Positions 39,272 to 64,000 of a stretch of 64,000 bases of DNA are shown here, piece after piece. The translations under genes were made by a program, and so were the position numbers. Under the pieces are notes generated by a model. It saw nothing but the letters and a program-made list of their open reading frames with translations, searched no databases and was not told where the DNA came from. The first letter of the stretch is position 1. Every line of letters starts with the position of its first letter. The stretch is from assembly GCF_024502345.1 (NCBI RefSeq), contig NZ_JALDNN010000001.1. The stretch is one strand, 5' to 3'. The DNA comes from Escherichia coli (GTDB lineage Bacteria; Pseudomonadota; Gammaproteobacteria; Enterobacterales; Enterobacteriaceae).

Positions 39272-39474
39272 ACGTTCAGCCCCGATAGTATTGGGGCTTC
39301 AGTATTTATCATCAGCGCAACGTTTCTACTGGCCTGGCTGAAAGAGCATTGGCTACACAACCGGGCAAACGAACTCTCAGTGCAACGTATGACATACAAA
39401 GCCTGTCATCAATATGAAATTGCGATAAAATCGGGCCAATAACAGTACTTAAGAATCATACAACAGGATACAAA

Positions 39475-41031
39475 ATGACAAGCCTTCAGCAGCGTGCAGA
39501 GCTACACCGTCAAATCTGGGCCATTGCCAATGATGTCAGAGGCTCCGTAGATGGGTGGGATTTTAAACAGTATGTACTCGGTGCACTTTTCTACCGCTTC
39601 ATCAGTGAGAATTTTTCCAGCTACATGGAAGCAGGGGATGAGAGCATACATTATGCAGCACTTGATGACAGCATCATTACCGATGACATCAAAGACGATG
39701 CCATCAGGACTAAAGGCTATTTCATCTACCCGAGCCAGCTGTTCTGCAACGTTGCCGCTAAAGCGAACACCAACGACAGGCTGAATGCTGATTTAAACAG
39801 TATCTTCGTCGCTATAGAAAGCTCTGCCTACGGCTACCCGTCAGAGGCCGACATCAAAGGCCTGTTCGCCGATTTCGATACGACCAGCAATCGACTGGGG
39901 AACACAGTTAAAGACAAAAACAGCCGTCTTGCCGCGGTTCTGAAAGGGGTTGAAGGGTTAAAACTTGGTGACTTCAACGAACATCAGATTGACCTGTTCG
40001 GTGATGCCTATGAGTTCCTGATTTCTAACTATGCCGCAAATGCCGGTAAGTCAGGCGGTGAGTTCTTTACACCGCAGCACGTCTCCAAGCTGATTGCACA
40101 ACTGGCTATGCACGGGCAGACCAGCGTTAACAAAATCTACGACCCGGCAGCGGGTTCCGGCTCACTGTTGTTGCAGGCGAAAAAACAGTTTGATAACCAC
40201 ATCATCGAAGAAGGCTTTTTCGGTCAGGAAATCAACCATACGACCTATAACCTGGCGCGTATGAACATGTTTTTGCACAATATCAACTACGACAAGTTTG
40301 ATATCAAGCTGGGTAATACACTGACTGAGCCGCACTTCAGAGATGAAAAACCGTTTGACGCCATCGTATCTAATCCACCGTATTCGGTGAAATGGATTGG
40401 CAGCGATGACCCGACGCTGATTAACGATGAACGTTTTGCCCCGGCTGGCGTTCTGGCCCCCAAATCCAAAGCTGACTTTGCGTTTGTATTACATGCACTG
40501 AACTATCTTTCTGCCAAAGGTCGTGCTGCGATTGTCTGCTTCCCGGGTATTTTTTACCGTGGCGGCGCAGAGCAGAAAATCCGTCAATATCTGGTCGACA
40601 ATAACTATGTCGAAACCGTGATTTCACTGGCACCGAACCTGTTCTTTGGCACCACCATTGCCGTCAATATTCTGGTGCTGTCTAAACATAAAACGGATAC
40701 CAAAGTTCAGTTTATTGATGCCAGCGAATTATTCAAAAAAGAGACTAACAACAATATCCTGACCGATGCCCATATCGAACAGATTATGCAGGTATTTGCC
40801 AGCAAGGAAGATGTTGCTCATCTGGCGAAATCTGTCGCGTTTGAGACCGTTGTCGCTAATGACTATAACCTGTCGGTGAGCTGCTATGTAGAAGCGAAAG
40901 ATAACCGCGAAATTATCAATATTGCTGAGCTAAATGCAGAGCTTAAAACTACGGTTAGCAAAATCGACCAGTTGCGTAAAGATATTGATGCGATTGTGGC
41001 TGAAATTGAAGGCTGCGAGGTGCAGAAATGA
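39475..41031 (+). CDS. hsdM: type I restriction-modification system methyltransferase subunit
   Basis: 518-aa ORF with SAM-binding [11 protein letters not shown] and catalytic NPPY (IVSNPPYS) motifs. Confidence 0.9.
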
Positions 41032-42200
41032 GCGAGTTGAGTTATCTGGAAAAATTGCTGGATGGGGTTGAGGTTGAGTGGAAATCATTGGGAGATGTTG
41101 TAAATTTTCAGCGCGGAAGGCGGCTCGTAAAATCTCAGTTAGAAACCAGAGGTAAATATGCGGTTTACCAAAACAGCATGACACCACTCGGTTACTATCA
41201 TGAGTATAATGTCGCAGCTCAATCTTCGTTCATTATCTGTGCGGGTGCAGCCGGTGAAATTGGTTATAGCGAAAATGAATTTTGGGCTGCCGACGATGTT
41301 CATTTCGCAATCACACCAGAATATATAAATGACAGGTTTTTGTTTCATTTTTTGTTGACGCAAAAGAATAAAATTTCAGGACAAGTACGCCGTGCCAGTA
41401 TTCCGCGTCTCTCAAAGTCAGTAATTGAAAAACTTGAATTCCCCATCCCCTGCCCGGATAATCCGGAAAAGTCCCTTGCCATCCAGTCTGAAATCGTTCG
41501 GATTCTGGATAAATTTACTGCACTTACCGCTGAGCTTACCGCTGAGCTTAACATGCGTAAAAAACAGTACAACTACTATCGCGACCAGTTGCTGAGTTTT
41601 GATGAGGGTGAGGTTGAGTGGAAGGCTTTGGAGGAAGTCTCAACTTTTGCTAATGGAAAGGGGCATGAAAAAGACATATCAGAAGACGGTAAATATATTG
41701 TTGTAAACTCTAAGTTTATATCTACCAATGGCGAAGTCGCCAAGTTATCAAACAAACAGCTATGCCCTCTTTTTAAAGACGATATTCTTTTGGTTATGAG
41801 TGACCTGCCCAATGGCAAAGCACTTTCAAAAACATTTATTGTTGATGAAGATCATAAATACACTTTAAACCAACGTATTGGTGGAATTACAGTAAAAAAC
41901 AGTAATGAATTACTCCCTAAGTTTTTGCACTATTTTTTAAATAGAACCCCGCAATTGCTGAAACATGACAATGGTGTTGATCAAACAAATTTGCGTAAAG
42001 GTCAAATACTTGAAGTAAAAATACCAATAATTTCACTCATCAAACAAGTTCAGATCGTTGAAACTCTTGATAAATTCGATACTTACACTAAGTCGATTTC
42101 AGAAGGCCTCCCGCGCGAAATCGAGCTGCGCCATAAACAGTACGAGTACTATCGTGATTTATTGTTCAGCTTCCCGAGACCAGAAACCGCCAGCAACTGA
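41028..42200 (+). CDS. hsdS: type I restriction-modification system specificity subunit
   Basis: 390-aa ORF with two target-recognition halves and repeated conserved segments (EVEWKSL...[15 protein letters not shown]; EVEWKAL...[15 protein letters not shown]); start overlaps the hsdM stop. Confidence 0.9.
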
Positions 42201-42316
42201 CGGACCATTGATACCGGCAGGGTTTGTTCTCACCCGCCCGGTATCAGGCTTTAAGAATGCCGGAAGATGCTTCTGATACCCTTCCGGAATTTGCCAGATG
42301 ACGCACAGGATGCACC

Positions 42317-45300
42317 ATGACACAACAGATACACACCATTGCTGAATCCAATAACTTTATCGTCCTTGATAAATACACCAAAGTTCTGGAGAACGGCGAC
42401 AGCTACCAGAGCGAATCGGATCTTGAGCGGGAACTGATTCAGGACCTTCTGAATCAGGGCTATGAATTTATATCCGTTAAGTCACCGACAGCGATGCTGG
42501 CGAATGCACGGGACCAGCTTCAGCATCTTAATGGTGTGGTGTTTAACGAAAGTGAATGGCGGCGCTTCGCAGAGCAGTATCTGGACAGCCCCAGTGACAG
42601 CAGCCTGGACAAAACTCGTAAAATCCATATCGACTATATCTGTGATTTCACGTTTGATGACGGTCGTCTGGAAAACATCTATCTGATAGATAAAAAGAAC
42701 CTGCTGCGCAATAAGGTGCAGGTCATTCAGCAGTTTGAACAGACCGGCTCACACGCTAACCGTTATGACGTCACCATTCTGGTTAACGGCCTGCCACTGG
42801 TGCAAATCGAACTCAAAAAGCGCGGCGTGGCTATTCGTGAAGCCTTTAACCAGATACACCGTTACAGCAAGGAAAGCTTTAACAGCGACAACTCCCTGTT
42901 TAAATACCTGCAACTGTTTGTGATATCTAACGGAACCGATACCCGGTACTTTGCCAGTACCACTAAGCGGGATAAAAACAGCTTTGATTTCACCATGAAC
43001 TGGGCGAAGTCGGATAACACTCTGATTAAGGACCTGAAGGACTTTACCGCCACCTTCTTCCAGAAACATACCCTGCTGAATGTTCTGTTTAATTACAGCG
43101 TGTTTGACAGCAGCCAGACTCTGCTCGTCATGCGCCCCTATCAGATTGCCGCCACTGAGCGAATCCTCTGGAAAATTAACAGCTCATTTAAAGCGAAGAA
43201 TTGGTCAAAACCCGAAAGCGGCGGGTTTATCTGGCATACCACCGGGTCAGGCAAAACCCTGACCAGTTTTAAGGCTGCACGACTGGCAACCGAACTGGAC
43301 TTTATAGACAAAGTCTTCTTCGTGGTCGACAGAAAAGACCTTGATTACCAGACAATGAAGGAGTATCAGCGCTTTTCTCCGGACAGCGTCAACGGTTCGG
43401 ATAATACAGCAGGCCTCAGAAGAAACCTGGATAAGGACGATAACAAAATCATCGTCACAACCATTCAGAAACTCAATAACCTGATGAAAGCCGAAGCTGA
43501 CCTGCCCGTCTATCAGCAGCAGGTAGTGTTTATCTTTGATGAGTGTCACCGCAGCCAGTTTGGTGAGGCCCAGAAAAACCTCAAAAAGAAATTCAGACGC
43601 TTTTATCAGTTTGGTTTTACCGGTACGCCTATTTTCCCGGAAAATGCACTGGGGGCAGAAACCACAACCAGCGTGTTCGGGCGTGAGTTACATTCTTACG
43701 TCATTACTGATGCGATTCGTGATGAAAAAGTACTGAAGTTTAAGGTGGACTATAACGATGTCCGCCCACAGTTTAAGTCTCTTGAAACGGAAACAGACGA
43801 GAAAAAACTCAGCGCGGCTGAAAACCAACAGGCATTTTTGCACCCCCTGCGTATCCAGGAAATAACGCAATACATTCTCAATAACTTCCGGCAGAAAACA
43901 CACCGAACCTTCCCGGGAGCTAAGGGCTTTAACGCCATGTTAGCAGTTAGCAGCGTGGACGCGGCGAAAGCTTATTACACGACGTTTAAAATGCTACAGG
44001 AAGAAGCAGAGAAGAAATCTGGCAGCTATAAATGCCTTCGGGTGGCAACCATCTTCTCCTTTGCTGCAAATGAAGAGCAAAGCGCCATTGGTGATATTAC
44101 TGACGAAAGCTTTGATACCAGTGCAATGAACAGCAGCGCGAAGGAATTCCTGGATTCAGCCATTGATGACTATAACAATCACTTTAAAACCAATTTCAGC
44201 ACCGACAGTAACGGTTTCCAGAACTACTACCGCAATTTAGCTCAACGAGTGAAAAATCAGGATATTGACCTTCTCATCGTGGTGGGAATGTTCTTGACTG
44301 GCTTTGATGCCCCGACGCTTAACACTCTTTTCGTTGACAAAAACCTCCGTTATCACGGCCTGATGCAGGCATTTTCCCGCACAAACCGTATCTATGATGC
44401 CACCAAAACCTTCGGCAATATCGTGACTTTCAGGGATCTGGAGCGTCCGACCATTGATGCCATCACACTATTTGGCGACAAAAACACCAAGAATGTGGTG
44501 CTGGAAAAAAGCTACGAAGAGTACATGCAGGGCTTTACCGATGCGGCAACCGGTGAGGCTAAACGAGGTTTTATGGCTGTTGTTTCGGAGCTGGAGCAGC
44601 GCTTCCCTGACCCTGCCAGTATCGACAGTGAAAAAGAGAAAAAAGCCTTCGTCAAACTGTTTGGTGAATATCTGCGGGCAGAAAACATCCTGCAAAACTA
44701 TGATGAATTTGCCACGCTGAAAGCCCTGCAGAAGGTTGATATTAGTGACCCGGAAGCGGTAGAAACCTTTAAAGCAGAGCACTATGTGGATGATGAAAAA
44801 TTTGCTGAATTACAAACCATTCGTCTCCCGGCAGAACGTAAAGTTCAGGACTATCGCTCAGCATACAATGATATCCGGGACTGGCAGCGACGCGAAAAAG
44901 CATCAAACGACAGGGATAAATCAACCACAGACTGGGATGACGTGGTGTTTGAAATTGACCTGCTGAAGTCGCAGGAAATTAACCTGGATTACATCCTTGG
45001 TCTGATTTTCGACCACAATCGTCAGAAAAAAGGTAAAGAAGCCCTGACTGAAGAGGTCAGACGCTTAATCCGCTCAAGTCTGGGCAACCGTGCCAAAGAA
45101 GGTCTGATTGTTGACTTTATTCAGCAAACTAACCTTGATGACATGCCGGACAAGGCCAGTATCATTGATGCATTCTTTACCTATGCTCAGCGTGAACAGC
45201 AACGGGAAGCAGAGGCGTTGATTAAGGAAGAAAACCTCAATGAAGAGGCTGCAAGGCGCTATATCCGCACATCACTAAAACGGGAGTATGCCACCGAAAA

Positions 45301-45433
45301 TGGGACGGAGCTAAATGAGACGCTACCAAAGCTCAGTCCGCTGAATCCTCAGTACAAAACGAAAAAGCAGACTGTATTCCAGAAAATTGGGGCATTTATC
45401 GAAAAATTTAAAGGGGTTGGAGGACACCTCTAG
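42317..45433 (+). CDS. hsdR: type I restriction enzyme R subunit (helicase/endonuclease)
   Basis: 1038-aa ORF with helicase motifs RPYQ, TGSGKT and DECH (IFDECHRSQ). Confidence 0.9.
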
Positions 45434-46516: not shown

Positions 46517-47782
46517 ATGGCACTGACTGACGCAAAAATCCGGGCTGCAAAGCCCACTGACAAGGCTTATAAACTCACTGACGGGGCCGGCATGTTCCTG
46601 CTGGTTCATCCTAATGGTTCCCGTTACTGGCGTCTCCGTTATCGTATTCTGGGTAAGGAGAAAACCCTGGCACTTGGTGTGTATCCGGAAGTTTCTCTCT
46701 CCGAAGCTCGTACAAAACGGGATGAGGCCCGAAAACTGATTTCGGAGGGGGTTGACCCTTGCGAACAGAAAAGAGCTAAAAAAGTAGTCCCTGATTTACA
46801 ACTCTCTTTTGAACATATTGCACGACGCTGGCATGCCAGTAATAAACAATGGGCACAATCACACAGCGATAAAGTACTCAAAAGCCTCGAGACACACGTT
46901 TTCCCCTTTATCGGCAACCGGGATATCACAACACTCAGTACCCCGGACCTGCTTATCCCTGTTCGTGCTGCAGAAGCTAAACAAATTTATGAAATCGCCA
47001 GTCGTCTGCAGCAAAGAATATCTGCTGTAATGCGTTATGCCGTACAGTCTGGCATCATCAGATATAACCCGGCTCTGGATATGGCTGGTGCATTGACCAC
47101 GGTAAAACGCCAGCATCGCCCTGCTCTGGATCTTTCACGCCTGCCTGAACTTCTGTCGCGTATTGACGGTTATAAAGGCCAGCCTGTCACCCGACTGGCA
47201 GTTATGCTGAATTTACTGGTTTTTATTCGTTCCAGTGAACTCAGATATGCCCGCTGGTCTGAAATTGATATTGACAATGCCATGTGGACTATTCCAGCCG
47301 AACGCGAACCTCTGCCAGGCGTAAAATTTTCATACCGGGGCTCCAAGATGCGAACACCACATCTTGTGCCACTCAGCCAACAGGCTGTAGCCATACTGGC
47401 AGAACTTCAGACATGGGCAGGTGAAAATGGTCTGATCTTTACGGGAGCACATGACCCACGTAAACCAATCAGTGAAAACACCGTAAATAAAGCCCTGAGG
47501 GTTATGGGGTATGACACAACCCAGGATGTCTGTGGTCATGGATTCCGGGCGATGGCATGTAGTGCATTAATAGAATCAGGTTTGTGGTCCCGCGATGCTG
47601 TGGAACGCCAGATGAGCCATCAGGAGCGTAATGGTGTACGTGCTGCGTATATCCATAAAGCCGAACATCTGGAAGAACGTCGACTTATGCTACAGTGGTG
47701 GGCCGATTTTCTGGATGCAAACAGAGAAAGATTTATCAGTCCATTTGAATATGCAAAGATTAATAATCCATTAAAACAATAA
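46517..47782 (+). CDS. P4-type tyrosine integrase
   Basis: 421-aa ORF MALTDAKIRAAKPTDKAYKLTDGAGMFLLVHPNGSRYWRLRYR (P4-like arm-binding N-terminus) and catalytic HGFRAMA...RAAYIH; 197 bp after the tRNA-derived repeat. Confidence 0.9.
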   Translation: MALTDAKIRAAKPTDKAYKLTDGAGMFLLVHPNGSRYWRLRYRILGKEKTLALGVYPEVSLSEARTKRDEARKLISEGVDPCEQKRAKKVVPDLQLSFEHIARRWHASNKQWAQSHSDKVLKSLETHVFPFIGNRDITTLSTPDLLIPVRAAEAKQIYEIASRLQQRISAVMRYAVQSGIIRYNPALDMAGALTTVKRQHRPALDLSRLPELLSRIDGYKGQPVTRLAVMLNLLVFIRSSELRYARWSEIDIDNAMWTIPAEREPLPGVKFSYRGSKMRTPHLVPLSQQAVAILAELQTWAGENGLIFTGAHDPRKPISENTVNKALRVMGYDTTQDVCGHGFRAMACSALIESGLWSRDAVERQMSHQERNGVRAAYIHKAEHLEERRLMLQWWADFLDANRERFISPFEYAKINNPLKQ

Positions 47783-51732: not shown

Positions 51733-52566
51733 GTGATGTTGATGTGTGATGCGACCGGTCTGTCGCAACGTCGTGCCTGCAGGCTTACAGGTTTATCCCT
51801 GTCGACCTGCCGCTATGAGGCTCACCGTCCGGCTGCTGATGCGCATTTATCAGGGCGCATCACTGAGCTGGCACTGGAGCGCAGGCGTTTTGGCTACCGT
51901 CGTATTTGGCAGTTGCTGCGCCGTGAAGGGCTTCATGTTAATCATAAGCGCGTGTACCGGCTTTATCACCTCAGTGGCCTGAGCGTAAAACGCAGAAGAC
52001 GTCGTAAAGGGCTGGCAACAGAACGTCTGCCGCTGCTCCGTCCGGCGGCGCCCAATCTGACCTGGTCGATGGATTTCGTCATGGACGCACTTTCCACCGG
52101 TCGCAGGATCAAGTGTCTTACCTGCGTCGATGATTTCACAAAGGAATGCCTGACGGTCACTGTTGCCTTTGGGATTTCAGGCGTTCAGGTCACGCGTATT
52201 CTGGACAGCATTGCACTGTTTCGAGGCTATCCGGCGACGATAAGAACTGACCAGGGGCCGGAGTTCACTTGCCGTGCACTGGATCAATGGGCCTTTGAGC
52301 ATGGTGTTGAGTTGCGCTTAATCCAGCCGGGCAAGCCAACGCAGAACGGATTTATTGAGAGCTTTAACGGACGATTTCGCGATGAATGTTTGAATGAGCA
52401 CTGGTTCAGCGATATCGTTCATGCCAGGAAAATTATTAATGACTGGCGGCAGGATTATAACGAATGCCGCCCGCACTCCACGCTGAATTATCAGACACCG
52501 TCTGAATTTGCAGCGGGCTGGAGAAAGGGTCATTCTGAGAATGAAGATTCCGACGTTACTAACTGA
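51733..52566 (+). CDS. IS3-family transposase OrfB (DDE catalytic domain)
   Basis: 277-aa ORF with integrase-core segments TWSMDFV, TDQGPEF and [16 protein letters not shown]; probably expressed as an OrfAB frameshift fusion. Confidence 0.85.
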
Positions 52567-52812
52567 GTGTTGTATCTAATCGTGGGGGCAGGTCACTCGA
52601 CTTGGTTCCATTAAAAACCATGAAGTTGATATAGGGTCAAGATTTTATACGATATACACATCAAGCATCTTGCATGAGTCGCACTGACTGACCCGGGTTA
52701 GTTACCATCATATTCTTTATGGTTGAGACCATACGGAAATCAGTGAATTAAAAATATTTATTCATCCAAAACACAAATGGTTTTAAGAAAGCCTAATGCC
52801 CTTCTTGTAAAA

Positions 52813-53082
52813 TTATTCAAGATAGTCAAGTATGTTTTTTATATTGTCAATTAAGGCGACATGCAGGTCAGGGTCATCACATTCATCTGAATGGCAATAG
52901 GAAATATGTTGAAGTATAATTCTTTTTTTGAATTCACTAACTGTACACTCCAACTCATACACCGACCGTACGATATCAATACAAGGTTCATCATCGATTA
53001 AAAAATCCTGCATTTTATTATACTTATCAGTCAGATCTTCTATCATAGAAATTAATACGGGGTCATTAACTAACATTGGCAT
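52813..53082 (-). CDS. hypothetical small protein
   Basis: About 89 codons from MPMLVNDPVLISMIEDL with upstream AGGAGA; downstream of and co-oriented with the AraC-family gene. Confidence 0.4.
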   Translation of the reverse strand: MPMLVNDPVLISMIEDLTDKYNKMQDFLIDDEPCIDIVRSVYELECTVSEFKKRIILQHISYCHSDECDDPDLHVALIDNIKNILDYLE

Positions 53083-53488
53083 ATCTCTCCTCATAATCTG
53101 AAAGTAAAGATGGACACAGCGCTGATAAATTCCAATTCCCTTGCTTGCGGTACCGACCGGGAGGAAGATGAAACTTGTTTTTAAAAGCTCTCGTGAAAGT
53201 TTGTTGCGAATTAAAACCATACTGAAGTGCAATGTCTAGGACTGTTCTGGAAGTCAATTTCAGATCAATCGCAGCACATGATAATCGACGAGCACGAACA
53301 TATTCACCCAGCGCAACACCGGTCGTCTGTTTAAACAAACGTTGAAAATGCCATCGTGAATACCCAGACTTCTCAGCAATAAATTCTACTGGCAAGGTTG
53401 TATTCAATGAACTTTCAACCCACTGCAAAATATCTTTGACAACACTTTCAGAATATTTCCTGGTGTCCATTCTCTCCCCCCAAACCAT
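53066..53488 (-). CDS. AraC/XylS-family transcriptional regulator (MarA/SoxS-like)
   Basis: ORF with paired HTH segments LPVEFIAEKSGYSRWHFQRLFKQTTGVALGEY and DIALQYGFNSQQTFTRAFKNKF. Confidence 0.8.
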   Translation of the reverse strand: MVWGERMDTRKYSESVVKDILQWVESSLNTTLPVEFIAEKSGYSRWHFQRLFKQTTGVALGEYVRARRLSCAAIDLKLTSRTVLDIALQYGFNSQQTFTRAFKNKFHLPPGRYRKQGNWNLSALCPSLLSDYEERYANVS

Positions 53489-53562
53489 ATTCTATGAATA
53501 TATTCAAACCAGAATACGGTCTCTGAGTCTGTCATCCATGAAGAACTCAGGGACCCAACTCT

Positions 53563-56064
53563 TTATTTTCGTAATAACCTCAGGCCATTTGCCACAACCA
53601 GAAGACTGGCACCAACATCAGCAAATACAGCCATCCACATAGTTCCCATTCCCATGAGCGTGAGTACAAGGAATACGGCTTTAATACCTAGAGCGAGGCT
53701 GATATTTTGCACGAGTAAGCTGTACGTTTGTCGGGATAATTTTACAAAGGCTGGGATTTTACGCAGGTCATCATCCATTAAGGCTACATCTGCAGTTTCA
53801 ATCGCCGTATCAGTACCCATTGCGCCCATAGCAAAACCGATATCAGCTGCAGCCAGAGCCGGTGCATCATTGATACCATCACCAACCATCCCAGTGATTC
53901 CAATCCGTGAATGCTCTTCAACTGCACGATGTTTATCTTCTGGCAATTGATTCCCTCGAGCCTCATCGATTCCAACCTGAGATGCGATTGCTTTAGCTGT
54001 ATGTGGGTTATCACCAGTCAGCATAATAGTTTTAACGCCAAGTTCATGAAGTTGTTCAATCGCTTCACGGCTGCTGTTTTTAACAGTATCAGCAACAGCG
54101 AACAACCCAAGCACTTGCTTACCATCATTGAGTAAAATAACTGTTTTACCCTGGCTTTCCAGCCTTTGTACTGTTGCTTTAATCTCTGATGGACAATTAA
54201 AGTGTTCTTCAGTCAAACGCAGGTTACCAAGGTAAAAATCCTTACCTGTAATCGCGCCATGCACACCTCGCCCAACAATCGCTTCAAAGCTGTCAACATC
54301 CTGCTTTTTCAAATCAGCAGAAGCATTCACAATTGCCAGTGAAACAGGGTGATCAGAGTAACTAGCGAGACTAGCTGCAGTAGTACGAACTTCACGCTCG
54401 CTCCACCCATTGAATACCATTACGTCGGTTTGTACTGGTTTCCCATAGGTAATAGTTCCTGTTTTATCCAGCGCAAGGGCTTTTAGCTTACGTCCCTGCT
54501 CAAGATAAACACCGCCTTTAATGAGAATCCCTTTGCGAGCAGCTGCAGTAAGTCCACTAACAATCGTTACTGGCGTAGAAATAACCAGGGCACATGGACA
54601 CGCAATGACAAGCATAACTAAAGCTTTATAGATCCACTCCTGCCATGTTCCTGCCCCAAACAATGGTGGCAATACAGCAACCGCAACAGCAATACCCATA
54701 ACGACGGGGGTATAAATCTGGGAAAAGCGGTCAACAAAACGTTGTGTAGCTGCTTTGGCGCCTTGCGCCTGCTCAACGGCATGAATGATGCGAGCAAGGG
54801 TTGTATTATTTGCAGCTGCAGTGACTTTATATTCAAAAGAGCCTGACTGATTTATTGTTCCAGCAAATACAGCATCGCCCGCAATTTTATCGACAGGCAT
54901 ACTTTCACCTGTAATTGGAGCTTGGTTAATGGTGGTTTGGCCTTTGACGATTTCTCCGTCGAGACCAATTCGTTCACCTGGTTTTACCCTGACAATACTG
55001 CCCGGTTGTACGCTACTGGCGTCAACTTCCTGCCATGTTCCATCAGCTTGTTGGACCATTGCAGTTTCAGGAGTCAGGTTCATCAGGGAACCTATTGCAT
55101 TTCTGGCTCTATCAAGTGATTTGGCTTCTATCAGCTCGGCAATGGTGAATAACACCATAACCATCGCCGCTTCTGGCCACTGCCCAAGGACCAAAGCCCC
55201 AGTAACGGCAATACTCATTAGTGCATTGATATTCAAGTTGCCATTGCGAATCGAAATCCAACCTTTTTTGTAGGTTGTCAGACCACAAGAAAGCACTGCT
55301 ATCAAAGCCAACCCAGCTTCTAGCCAGTCAGGCATATCAGCCCAGTGCATCACTTCGGCTGCAAGAGCAGCTACGCCAGCAAGAGCTAATGGCCACCAGG
55401 GCTTTTTTTTCTCCTGGGTATTTTTCTTGCCGCTAGTATTATCAGAGACTTCTGGCGCGAATCCCAACGAGCGAATTGCAGCCATGATAGCTTCAAGCGA
55501 ATCCGGTGTATGGGTTACAGTCAAAACACGCTGCATCAGGTTGAAATCAAGCTCTTTAACAGCGCTCATTCCACCCAGTTTCTTTTTGATAAGATTTTCT
55601 TCAACAGGACAATCCATCTGCATAATGCGAATTTCTGTCCGTAATCCACCAGCCACAACCTGCGAGCCCCCTAGGCTACTCAATTGTTCTGGAGCAGCGG
55701 AGCAACAATCCCCCTCATGGCCGTGATCGTGGCCTTCATGAGAATGCTCTTGCGCGGCATGAGCATGGTTACATCCCTTATGATTATGCTCATCATGCGA
55801 ATGCCCTTCGCCGCCATGGCTATGGGCATCATGATTATGGCCTTCATGGTTATGGCCTTCATGGTTATGACCTTCATGGGAATGATCATCACTGCATTTC
55901 TTGTGATTATGAGCCTGCTGATCATGTGCATGATCATTTGCTTTATGTGATTCACCAGTATTCTTAACCCGGAGTCCTGTCCCTAAATTGAACGTTTCAC
56001 AGCAACTAGCCGCTTCGTCTCCTGCAGGGTTTTTGCTATTTTTTACACCACCACTCATTTTCAT
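53563..56064 (-). CDS. heavy-metal-translocating P1B-type ATPase (Zn/Cd/Pb-type, ZntA/CadA-like) with His-rich N-terminus
   Basis: 833-aa ORF with His-rich N-terminal repeats (HEGHNHEGHNHEGHNH), metal-binding DCP motif, membrane CPC motif (VIACPCALV), phosphorylation site DKTGT and GDGINDAP. Confidence 0.85.
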   Translation of the reverse strand: MKMSGGVKNSKNPAGDEAASCCETFNLGTGLRVKNTGESHKANDHAHDQQAHNHKKCSDDHSHEGHNHEGHNHEGHNHDAHSHGGEGHSHDEHNHKGCNHAHAAQEHSHEGHDHGHEGDCCSAAPEQLSSLGGSQVVAGGLRTEIRIMQMDCPVEENLIKKKLGGMSAVKELDFNLMQRVLTVTHTPDSLEAIMAAIRSLGFAPEVSDNTSGKKNTQEKKKPWWPLALAGVAALAAEVMHWADMPDWLEAGLALIAVLSCGLTTYKKGWISIRNGNLNINALMSIAVTGALVLGQWPEAAMVMVLFTIAELIEAKSLDRARNAIGSLMNLTPETAMVQQADGTWQEVDASSVQPGSIVRVKPGERIGLDGEIVKGQTTINQAPITGESMPVDKIAGDAVFAGTINQSGSFEYKVTAAANNTTLARIIHAVEQAQGAKAATQRFVDRFSQIYTPVVMGIAVAVAVLPPLFGAGTWQEWIYKALVMLVIACPCALVISTPVTIVSGLTAAARKGILIKGGVYLEQGRKLKALALDKTGTITYGKPVQTDVMVFNGWSEREVRTTAASLASYSDHPVSLAIVNASADLKKQDVDSFEAIVGRGVHGAITGKDFYLGNLRLTEEHFNCPSEIKATVQRLESQGKTVILLNDGKQVLGLFAVADTVKNSSREAIEQLHELGVKTIMLTGDNPHTAKAIASQVGIDEARGNQLPEDKHRAVEEHSRIGITGMVGDGINDAPALAAADIGFAMGAMGTDTAIETADVALMDDDLRKIPAFVKLSRQTYSLLVQNISLALGIKAVFLVLTLMGMGTMWMAVFADVGASLLVVANGLRLLRK

Positions 56065-56139
56065 TGCCTCATCTGTTAACTATACTGACGATTAAAGACC
56101 CTAATCTAACTAGAGGGTCAAGCGCATAAGGGGGGAGGC

Positions 56140-56592
56140 ATGAAAATTGGTGAATTGGCCCGTAAGGCGGATTGTCCGGTGGAAACTATTCGGTACTATG
56201 AGAAAGAAGGATTACTTCAGGCTCCATTAAGAGATATTGAAAATAACTATCGCCGTTACAACAATACTCATCTGGAAAAGTTATTATTTATCCGACGCTG
56301 CCGCTCTCTTGATATGACCCATGAGGAAATACGTGCATTGCTACTGGCAATGAATAATCACGGTAAAGACTGTGGCCCCATTGATGCAATAATCAGTGCC
56401 CATCTCACTCATGTTCAGCATCGTATTAAAGAATTAATAGCCCTGGAAATACAACTCAAAGAACTTAATAACTATTGCAGCTCAGACCGGAGCGTGGACG
56501 AATGCGGGATAGTACAGAAATTGACTGCTGATGAAGAGAATGGTGATCTTCCTTTAACCGTACCAACTGACCACTTGGGGGGTGTGCATTAG
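56140..56592 (+). CDS. MerR-family metal-responsive regulator (ZntR/CadR/PbrR-like)
   Basis: 150-aa ORF with N-terminal HTH MKIGELARKADCPVETIRYYEKEGLL and C-terminal cysteines; divergent from the Zn/Cd/Pb-type ATPase. Confidence 0.8.
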   Translation: MKIGELARKADCPVETIRYYEKEGLLQAPLRDIENNYRRYNNTHLEKLLFIRRCRSLDMTHEEIRALLLAMNNHGKDCGPIDAIISAHLTHVQHRIKELIALEIQLKELNNYCSSDRSVDECGIVQKLTADEENGDLPLTVPTDHLGGVH

Positions 56593-56681
56593 TGGTGTGC
56601 GCTTATAAGTTGATTAGACTGATGGCGTAACACAAGCCCATACAGCTTTGTGCTACGCCATCATGCCCTTAAAATAAGGGG

Positions 56682-57146
56682 TCAGGCTTTTTCCATTTCG
56701 TTACCACGAGAACGACGTTGCACTGCCCCTTCTCTCTTACCGGGATGGCTTTTAGCATCAGCGGTCATTAATGTCTGGAGTATTGGGCATTCAACTCGCT
56801 CATCCCCAGCACAGCTTTTGATCAGAGCTCTGAGTGTATCTGCCATTCGTCGCATATTTTCCATACGTCGCTCTAAATCATCCATATGCTCTTGTGCCAG
56901 ACGTTTAACATCGGCGCTCTGGCGAGATTTGTCATTCCATAACTTGAGCAAATCGGCTATCTCTTCAAGAGAAAAACCAAGATCGCGCGCACTGCGGATA
57001 AAAATCAGACGATGGACATCATTGGGTGCATAATCACGGTAGCCCGCTTCGGTACGGCCAGTAGCAGGAATCAGACCAATTTGCTCGTAATAGCGAATCA
57101 TCTTTGCGGAGATTCCTGATTCGTTCGATGCTTTACCAATGTTCAT
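56682..57146 (-). CDS. MerR-family Cu/Au-responsive regulator (CueR/GolS-like)
   Basis: 154-aa ORF from MNIGKASNESGISAKMIRYYEQIGLIP with C-terminal metal-binding cysteines (CAGDERVECP); directly downstream of and co-oriented with the CopA-like ATPase. Confidence 0.8.
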   Translation of the reverse strand: MNIGKASNESGISAKMIRYYEQIGLIPATGRTEAGYRDYAPNDVHRLIFIRSARDLGFSLEEIADLLKLWNDKSRQSADVKRLAQEHMDDLERRMENMRRMADTLRALIKSCAGDERVECPILQTLMTADAKSHPGKREGAVQRRSRGNEMEKA

Positions 57147-57159
57147 AGCTCCCCTTTTC

Positions 57160-59655
57160 TTAGTGCTCAGAGTCTTCTGCCAGCGGAGGCTGGAACCGAC
57201 GCAAACGAAGTGCGTTGCCCAGGACAAATACACTGGATAGCGCCATCGCGCCTGCAGCAAAGATTGGTGAAAGCAGCAATCCATAGGCAGGGTACAGCAG
57301 GCCTGCTGCTACAGGGATCAATGCGGCATTATAACCAAACGCCCAAAAAAGATTTTGCCTGATGTTACCTATGGTTGCCTTAGACAATCCAATAGCATTA
57401 GGCACACCCTGTAGGTTGCCGGACATTAAGACAACATCAGCAGATTCCACCGCTATATCGGTACCTGTACCAATTGCAAGCCCAATATCTGCCACGGCTA
57501 AAGCTGGGGCATCATTAATGCCATCACCAACATAAGCGACCTTACCGTAAGACTCCTTCAACCGACGAACTGCTTCAACTTTCCCTTCTGGCAACACTTC
57601 GGCAACCACTTCATCAATACCAAGCTGTCTCGCAATCGCATTTGCTGTATTGGCATTGTCACCGGTAATCATTGCGACTTTGAGCCCCAGTTGGTGCAAT
57701 GCATTTATGGCAATCGGCGTACTTGATTTAATAGGGTCAGCGACTGCGATAATGGCAGCCAGACGTCCATCAATAGCAACATAGAGTGGCGATTTTCCTT
57801 CGTTTCCAAGGCGTATCGCAGTCTTTGAAAAATACTCGATATCCAAGCCTAACTCACGCATAAATCGATCGGCCCCGACCTCTACGCGCTCTCCGTCTAC
57901 GGTAGCCCTGACGCCCATCCCAGTAATTGAATCAAACTCAGTCAACGCTGGCAGCGATATCTCTTTTCCTAGAGCAGCTTCAACGATAGCGCGGGCAATA
58001 GGATGTTCCGAACGTGATTCAACAGCGGCAACTTTTGCTAATACTAAGTCAAGCTCAAACCCTTCGGCCAACTCCAGGTCTGTCATTACTGGGCGCCCTT
58101 CAGTCAAAGTACCTGTTTTGTCTACAGCGACAACCCTGGCATCTTTAAGCAACTGCAGAGCTTCTCCCTTACGGAACAAGATCCCCATTTCTGCACCACG
58201 CCCAGTACCTACCATGATAGAGGTTGGGGTAGCCAATCCCATTGCACATGGGCAGGCAATGATCAATACAGCCACGGCATTAACCAGTGCGAAAGACAGG
58301 GCCGGTGATGGCCCAAATGTTAACCAGGCAAGGAAAGTTAACAACGCTGCCAGCATCACCACAGGAACAAACCATAATGTCACCTTATCGACCACGGCTT
58401 GTATAGGTAGTTTAGAGCCCTGGGCTTGCTCTACCATTCTGATTATTTGTGACAACATCGTCTGGCCACCAACGGCTGTTGCACGCAACCTCAATGCTCC
58501 TTTCTGGTTAACAGTCCCGCCAACCATTAAGCTTCCGGGAACTTTCTCGACGGGGATAGGCTCCCCCGTTATCATCGATTCATCGACAAAACTTGTTCCT
58601 TCACTCACCTCACCATCAACAGGTATCCGCTCACCTGGTCGAACTTCGATAATGTCATCAAGGGCTACATCACTAATGGGAATATCGATGACAATGCCGT
58701 TACGCAGCACATGCGCCTCTTTGGCCTGCAATCCAACCAAACGCTTGATAGCCTCAGACGTTCGACCTTTAGCTCGCGCCTCCATAAATCGTCCTAAAAG
58801 AATAAGAGCGACGATTACCGCAGCAGCTTCGTAATACACATTGACGGTACCTTGAGGCAAAAGACCTGGAGCAAAGGTCGCAATCATTGAATAACCGAAT
58901 GCAGCGAGAGTCCCGACGGAGACGAGAGAGTTCATGTCTGGGCCAAGTCTTAATAACGCGGGAATACCTTTCAGGTAAAAGCGCCGCCCCGGAATAGCCA
59001 ACACCAGCAATGTTAATACAAACTGGAGATACCAGCTTTCCTGGAGCCCAATGGTATCCATTATCCATTGATGCATTCCCGGTATCACATGCGACCCCAT
59101 TTCCAGAATAAATACTGGTAACGCAAGTACGGTCGCCAGAACTAAATCTTTCTTCAACGCAACCTTTTCAGCATCTTTTTTTTCTGCGGCACTATCATTA
59201 TTCTGGCTTTGGTTATCAACCAGGCTGGCTTCATAACCGATTTTTTCGATAGCAGTTATGAGGTCATCAACTCCTGCGGTTCCACGTACAGTAGCTCTTT
59301 CAGTCGCTAAATTAACAGTGGCTTCTTTTACACCTTTAACCGCTCGGAGCGATTTTTCGACACGCCCTACGCATGATGCACATGTCATGCCCTGAACTGA
59401 TAACTCTACAGAAGCTTGAGGAACCTCATAACCAACCTTTTCAACTGCTTCAACCAACGCCATACGATTAACGAATGCATTTAGGCGGATATCTGCACGC
59501 TCTGTTGCAAGGTTAACGCTTACGTTTTGTACGCCTTCAACCTTAGCCAGAGCGGCTTCAACTCGTCCAACGCAGCTTGCACAAGTCATTCCCTCAATGG
59601 GCAAGCTGACTTGAGTTTCACCATCATTAGAATGCTGTTTTTTTTGAATGCTCAT
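57160..59655 (-). CDS. copper/gold-translocating P1B-type ATPase (CopA/GolT-like)
   Basis: 831-aa ORF with two N-terminal heavy-metal-associated domains ([12 protein letters not shown] twice), CPC motif ([12 protein letters not shown]), DKTGT and GDGINDAP. Confidence 0.9.
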
Positions 59656-59840
59656 GATGTATTTCTCATCGTTATGGTCAGATAAAGAACAACCTTAAGG
59701 CTTACCATCGTGGGAAGGTCAAGCGCATTATTTTGAACATGCCGATGCCGTGGAAGGAATGGATATAAAAACCCTTTACATGAACACATATTCATATGTT
59801 ATATTGAAGGCATCATGTATAACCAACCGCTTGAGGCCCT

Positions 59841-60845
<1,005 letters not shown>

Positions 60846-60890
60846 TCAGGCCTCTGGTGATGCACTATCAATTTAGGAGGGAGAATCATA

Positions 60891-61253
60891 ATGTCCAGCA
60901 CATCAGATTGCGGCAACATACAAGACTGTTCCGCGACAGATCATGTCGCGGAGCCAGATCTATCAATGCTCTCGCAAAACGACATTGGGCAACTTTCCGA
61001 GATTTTCCATCTACTGGGGGACCAGTCAAGACTACGAATCCTGCTTTACTGTATGCGTGGTTCGGTCTCTGTAGGCGACATTGCTGAGTCGCTCCAGTTA
61101 TCACAATCTCTGGTCAGTCATCATCTGAGGTTGTTACGAAGTGCAAGGCTTGTTCGCGGAGAGAGAAAGGGTAAGTACATATTTTATAGCATAATGGATC
61201 ACCATGTAAGTCATGTTCTTCAGGACATGGTATTTCACATAGCTGAAGAATAA
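60891..61253 (+). CDS. ArsR/SmtB-family metalloregulatory repressor
   Basis: 120-aa ORF with HTH segment GDIAESLQLSQSLVSHHLRLLRSARLV. Confidence 0.75.
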   Translation: MSSTSDCGNIQDCSATDHVAEPDLSMLSQNDIGQLSEIFHLLGDQSRLRILLYCMRGSVSVGDIAESLQLSQSLVSHHLRLLRSARLVRGERKGKYIFYSIMDHHVSHVLQDMVFHIAEE

Positions 61254-61637
61254 CCCGAATGAATTTTGATAAGTAGAGCTTGTGTAATTCCAACTCACCT
61301 TAGTTTTTCATTACTTTGGTGAGTTGTTTCATCATTAATTTATTAAAACCTTAATAATTAACCTTTTAATAATGAAACCTGCCCCCTTCCCTTGTATGTA
61401 ATAAATACCTGATGGTTCACTATCACCAGATAAAGCGAAGTGAGCAGGCCACCTCATGAAGGAGAAACCTTGCTTTGCAAGCTTATTGAATAGCCACGGA
61501 TAATCTAGTTTGTCTGCTTCGTGCCAAAAGCGGACATTGCTACATCACAATGCGTTATGGTCAACATCAGAATGCAGCCCTTGTGTTGTGACGTGTAGTC
61601 TGGCCTAAACGCAGTTGCACTACATTACCTCGTGGGG

Positions 61638-61886
61638 TCAGCGACGGCCCCGTTTCAGTTCACGTACACAGGGATCATACTCATCTGCATAGCCACCAAA
61701 GTCATGGCTGGGCATGAAGTACCACTTTTCACCTTTCCAACCAGCGATCCGGGTGGTCGGTTTGGTTTTATTCAGAACAACAATACAGACGCCGACGGGA
61801 GACACTGGAGGAAGAAGTCGTTGCACCACACACTCACGATTGCCCACATCAATCCAGTCTTTGACGTGAATTTCAGGATGGTTCAT
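61638..61886 (-). CDS. hypothetical protein
   Basis: 82-aa ORF MNHPEIHVKDWIDVGNRECVVQRL; no family recognised. Confidence 0.35.
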   Translation of the reverse strand: MNHPEIHVKDWIDVGNRECVVQRLLPPVSPVGVCIVVLNKTKPTTRIAGWKGEKWYFMPSHDFGGYADEYDPCVRELKRGRR

Positions 61887-62166
61887 TGTTTATCTTCATG
61901 TGATGGAATTGCTTACCGTAATGCATCCGATTACCGTGCAAGATCATGTATCCTGTCGCCTTCCTGCTCCCTTGAGGTGGCGCTGCCTTGGTACAGTCAG
62001 CACTCTGAATGTCAGGCCCAGCCGCGAGGCCGGAAGCTCATCAGGTCGCTGCGGTAGGGGAAAACGGTCCGGGTAACAGACCGTAATCGCCTGCTGGTGG
62101 TTATTGGCCCTGACTGGAGCCGCACTGAAAACTGAAGCGCATTAATATACTCGCGCCTCCGACAGG

Positions 62167-64000
62167 TCAGGCAATTTCTTCCAGCGCATCGTCATTTGCC
62201 GGTGGAGGAGGAAGTATAAGCGCGTCGCACTCCCTGATGACATATTCAGGAATGAGATCAAACCGGGCAGGATCCAGCTGACAGATAAATTCATTTTCAA
62301 TGTGGTAGGTCTCATTCATGAATTTACGTATTACTGCGTTCTCGAGTCCGGTCTGAAGCAACCTGAACACCTGCAGTTTCTCGTAGCCATTACGGCAGAG
62401 CAGATAAAGCGCACGTATACGATCCGGGTCGGTGAGCTGAACGAAAGTGGCCTGGTAGTCAAAGCCGGGAATGCGATCGGCGATTGCCTGGCAGCCGAAG
62501 GCAACTTTTTCTGCGGACATTTCAGGATGTCCCACTCCCTGCACAACGGGTTCACGGGTGTCGATGGGCGTTTCACGGTGATGAAAAAGGTTTGACAGCA
62601 CCTGATAGGCATCACCGAGGTCGTCCATAATTTCATAATGTCGGCGAAGATAGATCAACTTGATGATGTCTTCACTATCAGAGTCAGTGACAGACTGGCA
62701 GATCTGAGCAAAAGTGCGGATATCACTTTCACCGATGAGCTGCTCGGTGATGCAGCCTGCGCTGTAGTGCAAGTGTGAGGCCGTAACCAGATTACTGAAC
62801 AGCTTCCTGACGGACTTCAGTGTATCAATAATAGGCTCAACATCGTGAGTCAGCATCAGTACCGTTTCATTTTTCAGGCACTCACCGGTATTGCGGCGAA
62901 ACAGCATCTCCAGGATGGCAAATTTCTTGTTCTTATCAAACGATGAAATCGGGTCGTCAAGAATGATCAGGCCTGGCTTCTTGGCTAAGCATTCATACAT
63001 AAACAGAACAATGGCAAAGGCGTTGCGTTCACCGTAGCTGAGATGCTGGCTGCCGCCGCTGACGTAGCCTTCAAAGTCTTCGTGGCGCAGTTTCAGCCGA
63101 CATTTATCGCCTTCCCCAGTGATATCCACCTGATAACGATAGCCTGCGTAAGCCAGAAAGGTATTGATATCGGTTTTATGCTTGAGGATCAGCTTCTGCA
63201 TGCCCTGACGCTGCTTATTTATTTGACCCTGCAGGCGTCCGGCCTGCGTCGTCAGGTCGTCTAAAGAGGTATTGAGACTGGCTACGGTGCGGGCCGTTTT
63301 ATCCGACTGCAGCTCCGGGAAAAACTTCACGTCTAGGCGACAGGCTTCCAGTGCAGCCTTGACGTTGGTTGAAGCGCTGAACGTAAAGCCGTTAAGAGTC
63401 TTAAGGGTATTCAGCATATTTATCAGGCTGTCTGTCTGCTTCTTCACTGTCACGAGATATTCTTCGTGCTGTTTTTCCAGCCCACTTTTTAGGGTTGTAA
63501 TATCAGCGAGGCGGGCACGGGCAGGCTCTGAAAAATATTCGCCGAGTTTATCTAGCACGCCGATCAGGCCGATCAGGTTTTTAATGACAGCCTTATCATA
63601 CTCCGCGCTGACGCGGCTAATCTGCTCGGCCTTTTCACGGGAGTCGCCAGTACAGAACGGACAGCAGCCGTCGGATAGCGCGGAGAATTTCTCATACCCC
63701 CGGGTCTGCCACTCGATCCACTCTACGCTGCTTTTACTTTGGATGTACGGCTTATAAGATTCCAAACCGTCGGGAATGTGCTGAAGCTTGTTGCCAGCGG
63801 ATAAGCCTTTCATACCGGTAGACGTTTTTGCAATCCCGGTACTACTCAGCTTAAATGCGGCGCTGAGTTCCCCCAGGTGCGTGATGAATTCTTCAAGCCC
63901 GACGTTATCAGCAAACTGCTGCCGTATGGCCACGACCATGGCTTCGATTTCGCGTTCTGTCTCGTGATACGCTTCACTTTTGATGAAGATGTCAAAACTA
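62167..64000 (-). CDS. ABC/SMC-like ATPase, C-terminal part; N-terminus beyond the window end
   Basis: ABC signature LSYGERNAF and Walker B LIILDDPISSFD; no Walker A within the window; the reading frame stays open upstream of the first ATG to position 64000. Confidence 0.65.
   Translation of the reverse strand, partial: SFDIFIKSEAYHETEREIEAMVVAIRQQFADNVGLEEFITHLGELSAAFKLSSTGIAKTSTGMKGLSAGNKLQHIPDGLESYKPYIQSKSSVEWIEWQTRGYEKFSALSDGCCPFCTGDSREKAEQISRVSAEYDKAVIKNLIGLIGVLDKLGEYFSEPARARLADITTLKSGLEKQHEEYLVTVKKQTDSLINMLNTLKTLNGFTFSASTNVKAALEACRLDVKFFPELQSDKTARTVASLNTSLDDLTTQAGRLQGQINKQRQGMQKLILKHKTDINTFLAYAGYRYQVDITGEGDKCRLKLRHEDFEGYVSGGSQHLSYGERNAFAIVLFMYECLAKKPGLIILDDPISSFDKNKKFAILEMLFRRNTGECLKNETVLMLTHDVEPIIDTLKSVRKLFSNLVTASHLHYSAGCITEQLIGESDIRTFAQICQSVTDSDSEDIIKLIYLRRHYEIMDDLGDAYQVLSNLFHHRETPIDTREPVVQGVGHPEMSAEKVAFGCQAIADRIPGFDYQATFVQLTDPDRIRALYLLCRNGYEKLQVFRLLQTGLENAVIRKFMNETYHIENEFICQLDPARFDLIPEYVIRECDALILPPPPANDDALEEIA

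Follow-up and report, generated by a model that had tools for sequence, protein, structure and literature searches.

What is the large ATPase whose gene runs off the end of a 64,000-nucleotide stretch of Escherichia coli DNA, and what does it do for its host? The stretch (contig NZ_JALDNN010000001.1 of assembly GCF_024502345.1), hereafter the window, ends inside this gene, which lies on the minus strand. A preliminary description of the window, made from its letters, saw in the gene product an ABC/SMC-like protein and a possible component of a defence system. We found that the protein belongs to PDC-S06, a candidate defence family catalogued by PADLOC. From the genomic context of its relatives we infer that defence is the best-fitting role, and we regard it as an even call whether the protein is a restriction-linked, RloC-like sensor-effector made of a single polypeptide.

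Extent and family of the truncated gene

The minus-strand frame at 62167-63999 consists of 610 sense codons and closes with a stop at 62167-62169. Translation gave no stop before the window edge, in agreement with the open frame that the preliminary description had claimed. The list of open reading frames (ORFs) gives 62167..63939 and 590 aa for the same frame because it takes the first in-window ATG as the start. The window thus holds the 3' part of the gene (62167..64000, minus strand; 1,834 nt), which encodes residues 103-712 and the stop. By inference, 610 stop-free codons would arise by chance with a probability of ~(61/64)^610, roughly 1e-13. A sequence search returned more than 3400 homologues, and the dN/dS of the gene is 0.14 against a 98%-identical copy in an E. 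coli island and 0.05 against an 87%-identical copy in Pantoea. The open-frame probability, the homologues and the two dN/dS values exclude a chance ORF, and the gene is under purifying selection.

The 5' part was recovered from plasmids. Positions 52596-64000 of the window are 100% identical to a module on large plasmids of Klebsiella, Citrobacter, Raoultella and E. coli. On one of these, plasmid p17277A_477 of K. quasipneumoniae (locus L003), the complete gene of 2139 nt encodes a protein of 712 aa, WP_009654821.1, annotated as 'AAA family ATPase'. Judging from this plasmid, the start codon is the equivalent of window position 64305, and residues 1-102, which include the Walker A sequence GTGKST at aa 31-36, lie outside the window. 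Both the truncation of a large ABC/SMC-like ATPase by the window edge and the placement of its Walker A beyond 64000, as given in the preliminary description, are borne out.

The same description had recommended extending the sequence past 64000 and searching with the full protein. The extended protein matched model PDLC04889 of PDC-S06 along its full length (E 1.3e-297), its residues 1-698 aligning with profile positions 1-688 of 693. The opinion that the family could not be assigned from the partial sequence proved too cautious; the in-window part alone matches this model with an E of 6.9e-247. The full-length protein also exceeds the gathering threshold of Pfam AAA_13 (PF13166), with 65 bits against 36; the ATPase parts alone align, and the best aligned stretch covers profile positions 363-572 of 713. 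We take AAA_13 to be the Pfam family that holds PrrC and RloC. In PADLOC, PDC-S06 comprises 13 hidden Markov models (HMMs) of AAA_13-type ATPases and is scored as a single-gene candidate. Judged by its sequence, the window ATPase is an exact member of the sub-model PDLC04889. PDC-S06 itself is a computational guilt-by-association candidate with no mechanism described.

Other defence families were considered and rejected. The OLD, Gabija or PARIS kinship proposed in the preliminary description fell away: there is no TOPRIM domain or partner in the protein or its neighbourhood, the AriA models of PARIS match marginally (E >= 5.5e-4, no stretch passing alone), no GajA model is among the PADLOC matches listed, and PtuA models are marginal only. 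For Lamassu, the LmuB HMM gave a partial match (E 4.4e-14, best stretch 328-585 of 611), and the partner genes LmuA/LmuC are not conserved at the loci.

A housekeeping ABC transporter ATPase or a DNA-repair SMC protein is the identity that the preliminary description had set against a defence gene, and it was not found. The generic ABC motifs do match models of transporter nucleotide-binding domains (NBDs) weakly, and some databases label homologues 'EcfA2' or 'Mn/Zn transport ATPase'. The transporter scores are, however, far below the cut-offs (29 bits against 261 for the best NCBIfam model), and the NCBIfam transporter models align to the signature/Walker B segment only. A PDB sequence search with the ATPase returned generic ABC NBDs only, with E > 0.005. 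No permease, nuclease or kleisin gene was found adjoining the window ATPase. Moreover, a coiled-coil insert of ~285 aa interrupts the ABC head, the structural model matches SMC/Rad50 heads yet belongs to a protein of 712 aa with an extra C-terminal domain, and the family occurs sporadically, in ~0.26% of species and in variable context. A housekeeping role is hardly credible for such a protein.

Head, hook and C-terminal domain

In an AlphaFold2 model of the full-length protein (42 homologues; predicted local distance difference test, pLDDT, 82), a helical insert of ~285 aa, at about aa 100-385, divides the ABC head. When this model was compared with the PDB by Foldseek, the best matches were the heads of Smc2, Smc and Rad50 with coiled coil (E 1e-7 to 1e-4). 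The apex of the insert bears CPFC (C215-C218; 63652..63663, minus strand), a CxxC motif that resembles a zinc hook; it is flanked by helices and modelled with low pLDDT. C215 is 100% and C218 99% conserved in an alignment of 80 sequences that reaches down to 28% identity, and the CPxC motif is a predicted zinc hook. An ABC head split by a coiled coil with a CxxC hook is the arrangement of Rad50, SbcC, LmuB and RloC (PMC2610378, PMC12663957).

The remaining ATPase motifs of the window, all on the minus strand, were assigned from translation and conservation. The ABC signature LSYGERNAF (aa 422-430) lies at 63016..63042, and the Walker B motif with the D-loop, LIILDDPISSFD (aa 446-457), lies at 62935..62970; both had been quoted in the preliminary description and stand where the frame predicts them. 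The H-loop LTHD at 62842..62853 contains H487, which is 100% conserved. Taken together, K34 of Walker A, S423, G425 and E426 of the signature, D450 and D451 of Walker B and H487 are 95-100% conserved. Walker B reads LIILDD, with D450 and D451 both 100% conserved family-wide, whereas ABC ATPases usually carry Asp-Glu at this position. The Asp-Asp pair may indicate slow, switch-like hydrolysis.

With Rad50, SbcC and LmuB, the protein shares the fold of the head and a helical insert with CxxC at its apex, and it partially matches the LmuB HMM. It differs from them in its much shorter arms, its extra C-terminal domain and its sporadic rather than housekeeping distribution, and most of its loci have no obligate nuclease or kleisin partner. 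The likeness to RloC, a wobble-nucleotide-excising anticodon nuclease (Davidov & Kaufmann 2008, PMC2610378), extends to the whole architecture. RloC is also a single polypeptide of similar size (658-897 aa, vs 712 aa here), with an ABC head interrupted by a coiled-coil insert that carries a central CxxC hook, followed by a C-terminal domain with a conserved R-x3-E. Walker A, the signature, Walker B/D-loop and the linchpin His are all present in the window ATPase family (95-100% conserved), and members of both families are restriction-linked in some cases and stand-alone in others.

The C-terminal part (aa 517-712; 62170..62757, minus strand) is an all-alpha domain of 196 aa and a putative effector or partner-binding module. 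Modelled alone, it reached a pLDDT of 91 and a predicted TM-score (pTM) of 0.86. One of its helices carries the sequence RRHYE, an R-x3-E motif with R554, R555 and E558 (62632..62646, minus strand). R554 and H668 are 100% conserved, R648 is 99% and E558 94% conserved, and further conserved residues are E521, D528, R555, E558, S571, K643, K661, E665, N671 and Q676. According to the conservation alignment and the AlphaFold2 model, H668 belongs to the sequence KFMNETYHIEN (K661, E665, H668 and N671; 62293..62325, minus strand) and closes a later helix, at the transition to a loop modelled with low confidence. E558 and H668 are spaced by 109 residues, and the residue before H668 is Tyr or Phe. Another histidine, H575 at +17 from E558, is nearly invariant among close homologues only. 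The conserved basic residue before H668 is K661 (K-x6-H). The invariant R554 and H668, with the near-invariant E558, R648, K661, E665 and N671, would make up a catalytic or ligand-binding site.

Searches for relatives of this domain led back to the family itself. No Pfam match was obtained with the window protein singly or with 49 diverse members (E <= 10), a profile search found no PDB sequence relative, and no significant fold match was found, nuclease folds included. When the 49 C-terminal domains were scanned with PADLOC, PDLC04889 was the sole matching model; the PrrC model and the other 12 sub-models of PDC-S06 do not match, which sets PDLC04889 apart as a distinct architecture. The domain forms 401 clusters at 50% identity among the 1.84 billion representatives of a sequence library, and in the best 150 listed it occupies residues ~500-700 of ~700-aa proteins; it is always fused to the ATPase. 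Stand-alone C-terminal domains were considered and rejected, as the short hits examined were truncated gene calls starting at an internal 'MLTHD'. Because the domain is confidently predicted, strongly conserved and without a structural or sequence relative, it is a tractable target for structure-function work.

Genomic context of the relatives

The defence role is read from the neighbours of related genes. ORFs were called in 77 related loci and clustered, and recurring clusters were annotated with Pfam. At 15 of the 77 loci, the ATPase is co-directional with type I restriction-modification (R-M) genes (hsdM, hsdS or hsdR), some of them ordered hsdR-hsdM-hsdS-X. Three loci (L054, L061 and L079) show the order hsdM-hsdS-X-(rhuM)-hsdR, and the slot hsdM-hsdS-X-hsdR is presumably the position of prrC in the prr locus. 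The ATPase follows BREX pglZ-brxL at four loci, RhuM occurs at four, and at seven sbcD begins within the ATPase stop codon (ATGA overlap) and is followed by sbcC. With each locus counted once, 20 of the 77 show one or more of the three links (R-M, BREX or SbcCD). The definition of PDC-S06 in PADLOC does not contain these links. R-M embedding and association with RhuM have also been described for ABC-HEPN proteins of the PrrC/RloC type (Anantharaman et al., PMC3710099). Other neighbours of the relatives are VapBC, a TIR protein, a KAP NTPase, an AAA_15/21 ATPase, Abi_2, a restriction endonuclease and CBASS.

PrrC, the tRNA-Lys anticodon nuclease of the type IC prr locus, resembles the window protein in joining an ABC NTPase to a C-terminal effector, and some relatives of the window protein occupy the hsdM-hsdS-X-hsdR slot beside an EcoR124-type HsdR. 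However, PrrC has ~400 aa and no coiled-coil/zinc-hook insert, and the window copy has no adjoining hsd genes, being flanked instead by metal-resistance genes and a fragment of an MFS transporter gene. The PADLOC model of PrrC, PDLC02360, matches residues 446-468 (Walker B) only, with an E of 0.0014.

In the RloC-like reading, the zinc-hook ATPase would dimerise, by analogy with Rad50, SbcC, LmuB and RloC. It would sense an infection cue on DNA, which could be free or abnormal ends or the failure or inhibition of a restriction complex; binding and hydrolysis of ATP would in turn activate the C-terminal domain. The leading guess for the output is a metal-independent RNase that would act on tRNA or rRNA and cause abortive infection, as PrrC and RloC do, but RNase chemistry of this domain is in our view rather doubtful. 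An alternative output is degradation of DNA by SbcCD, which may apply to the clade with a dedicated SbcCD and possibly to the family as a whole.

Several observations weigh against the RloC-like reading. About three quarters of the relatives, the window copy included, have no adjoining R-M, BREX or SbcCD genes. The literature searched holds no functional test of any PDC-S06 member, and the papers that name PDC-S06 merely list it. The anticodon nuclease triad of RloC is Arg-X3-Glu-X36-52-His, often with Ser before the His (PMC2610378), whereas here the His follows the Glu by 109 residues and is preceded by Tyr or Phe. The C-terminal domain also differs from that of RloC in having no detectable homology to anything known, and one clade differs in being coupled to a dedicated SbcCD. 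The PrrC profile PDLC02360 gave no hit to the 49 C-terminal domains even at E <= 10. HEPN RNases form a four-helix up-down bundle whose helix 3 ends in the motif Rx4-6H (PMC3710099), and a conserved motif of this form is absent from the C-terminal domain, in which R660 is variable. No HEPN Pfam model matched across the 49 members; the sole hit, HEPN_AbiU2 in one of the 49 with an E of 0.03, is noise. Comparison of the domain by hhalign with a HepT HEPN protein and with an Abi_2 protein gave probabilities of <1%. The HEPN-like RNase is kept as a weak lead and not as a finding because of the 109-residue spacing, the missing Rx4-6H and the negative hhalign result.

The integrity of the gene also bears on the window copy. 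Codons 20-22 of the ATPase contain a run of eight A (A8) that lies past the window edge, at ~64240-64250 in window numbering. This run is A8 and the gene intact on plasmids from Argentina and Vietnam (L003/L018). On three IncFIB/IncHI1B-type plasmids from Houston (L001/L016/L017) it is A7, and the gene is frameshifted and annotated as a pseudogene. Because the identical plasmids include the A7 allele, the ATPase of the strain from which the window comes may be inactive. The difference between A8 and A7 could be either an inherited inactivating slip or a slippage-prone tract that turns the gene on and off.

The seven loci with sbcD and sbcC (L025, L027, L030, L041, L049, L053 and L083; e.g. L027 5453-12062) suggest another division of labour. 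Between Legionella, Deltaproteobacteria, Acidithiobacillus, Nitrospirae and Desulfuromonadales, the SbcD proteins of these loci share 74-86% identity, against ~33% with an unrelated SbcD. This high identity over five distant lineages marks ATPase-sbcD-sbcC as a mobile three-gene unit. The module follows either type I R-M genes or BREX pglZ-brxL, and it is not listed as a system in PADLOC 2.0. The protein might then be a sensor of DNA ends or structures that recruits or activates an SbcCD nuclease of the Mre11-Rad50 type against foreign DNA. Its C-terminal domain would be a docking or DNA-binding module and not an enzyme, and stand-alone copies in Enterobacteriaceae would use the SbcCD of the host. 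The ATGA overlap, the movement of the genes as one unit and its position downstream of differing systems argue for this account, as does the lack of a nuclease-fold match for the C-terminal domain. However, ~90% of the loci have no linked sbcDC, and the invariant constellation of R, E, H, K and N resembles an active site more than a docking surface. We consider this account unlikely.

The same module and the same C-terminal domain may be read in a further way, which we put forward tentatively as possible. The PDLC04889 proteins might not be divergent RloC proteins but a distinct and so far unrecognised class that guards restriction and BREX systems. They would combine a Rad50-like zinc-hook ATPase with a new-fold domain that has its own catalytic or signalling chemistry, and in one mobile clade they would form an obligate three-gene machine with SbcCD. 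Their mechanism would in that case be other than anticodon cleavage, possibly DNA-end sensing with destruction of phage DNA by SbcCD. Alternatively, the domain could be a new RNase or NTPase effector that is triggered when type I R-M or BREX is inhibited.

No constant neighbour gene was found across the plasmid, E. coli island, Pantoea, IncI, Vibrio and cyanobacterial loci. Candidate partner genes (an 82-aa ORF, the 194-aa MFS fragment and the 196/85-aa IncI genes) were rejected, none being common to different contexts in an all-against-all BLAST. A gene of ~74 aa directly adjoins distant members of the family (L020 5773-5997, L022 1872-2093, L076 5164-5376 and L092 7555-7773). Its copies are 46-55% identical to each other, have no Pfam or PADLOC match and are absent from the window; a KTSC domain was considered for this gene, upstream of the distant members, and dropped for want of a Pfam hit. 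It may be an accessory or regulatory gene in some clades.

Distribution and the window copy

The family is sparse and widespread. Close homologues (57-72% identity) occur in Gamma- and Alphaproteobacteria, Legionella, Vibrio, Acidithiobacillus and Cyanobacteria. When one genome per species was scanned, the C-terminal domain turned up in at least 259 of 100,044 species (about 0.26%), distributed over Proteobacteria, Bacteroidota, Verrucomicrobiota, Planctomycetota, Chlorobiota, Nitrospirota, Bacillota and the candidate phyla radiation (CPR). This sparse occurrence across phyla fits horizontal transfer. The family was found in none of the 50,697 phage genomes of INPHARED and in only 23 of 2.9 million IMG/VR contigs.

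Within E. coli, 87 of 5,426 complete genomes contain a near-identical copy, which is chromosomal in 83 of them. In the single island examined, that of E. coli FDAARGOS_497, the ATPase gene lies in an integrase island beside ychF. The same island encodes a protein of 1589 aa (L002 16675-21444) that combines an N-terminal domain of the Sacsin type with an SF1 helicase (AAA_11/AAA_12) and could be the product of another defence gene.

Among the plasmids of PLSDB, 884 of 72,556 carry the family, and 612 of the 884 are predicted to be conjugative. The matches are mostly to a 62%-identical paralogue, WP_000350635.1, found mainly on E. coli and Salmonella plasmids of ~95-195 kb, one of which was typed as IncI-gamma/K1. 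The plasmid types that carry the family are IncHI2-, IncFIB/HI1B- and IncI-type plasmids of Klebsiella, E. coli and Salmonella. This frequency on plasmids, many of them mobile by prediction, would suit a function in plasmid biology and not against phages: an SMC-like ATPase that acts on competing plasmids or incoming DNA, or that aids plasmid maintenance. SMC-like systems such as Wadjet and Lamassu/Ddm do act on plasmids. Most members of the family, however, are chromosomal, belong to non-enteric phyla and have R-M/BREX links. The family also lacks the kleisin or nuclease partner known from Wadjet and Lamassu, and its plasmid neighbourhoods are clusters of defence and toxin-antitoxin genes and not partition loci. 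Such a function is very unlikely in our estimate.

The window copy is a stand-alone form borne by large conjugative plasmids. It is followed downstream by an orphan ORF of 82 aa (61638..61886, minus strand), which has no Pfam, NCBIfam or PADLOC match, and then by a metal-resistance module. The ORF belongs to a segment of ~2.97 kb that is 98% identical between the plasmids and the E. coli island beside ychF. It accompanies the ATPase only in that 98%-identical island copy and is absent from all other related loci examined, and it probably stands outside the ATPase system. Upstream of the ATPase, the identical plasmids carry the MFS-transporter fragment and then a type I CBASS. The CBASS pair, at L003 21987-23742 or ~1.3-3.4 kb past window position 64000, consists of a Cap15-like effector with two transmembrane segments (E 1e-80) and a CD-NTase (E 4e-139), both identified by PADLOC.

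The window also holds a complete R-M system of the EcoR124 type (type IC-like) on the plus strand, with hsdM at 39475-41031, hsdS at 41028-42200 and hsdR at 42317-45433. It is preceded by a GmrSD_N/DUF262 gene (37394-39271, plus strand) and followed by a tyrosine integrase gene (46517-47782). These GmrSD-like and R-M genes (37394-45433) form a second defence cluster, ~17-25 kb from the ATPase gene, with the nearest hsd genes ~17 kb off. Action in trans between the window ATPase and the type I R-M system, as proposed for RloC, is conceivable by analogy. The metal-resistance module itself (52596-61300) encodes two P-type ATPases (53563-56064 and 57160-59655), a CDF transporter (59841-60845) and CadR-like, CueR-like and ArsR/SmtB regulators. 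An IS3-family transposase gene (51733-52566) directly precedes it, and the identity to the plasmids begins there.

The ATPase is a member of an already catalogued candidate family. Set against characterised systems, it is an RloC/PrrC-type variant whose C-terminal domain is different and unclassified; its SbcCD-coupled sub-type is previously unlisted. If the RloC-like reading is true, the protein would be the product of a common and uncharacterised immune gene of clinically important plasmids, with a possible effect on the host range of phage therapy and on plasmid ecology. R-M and BREX islands would in addition be connected with a dedicated SbcCD nuclease, and the PrrC/RloC principle of a second line behind restriction would extend to a new effector domain.

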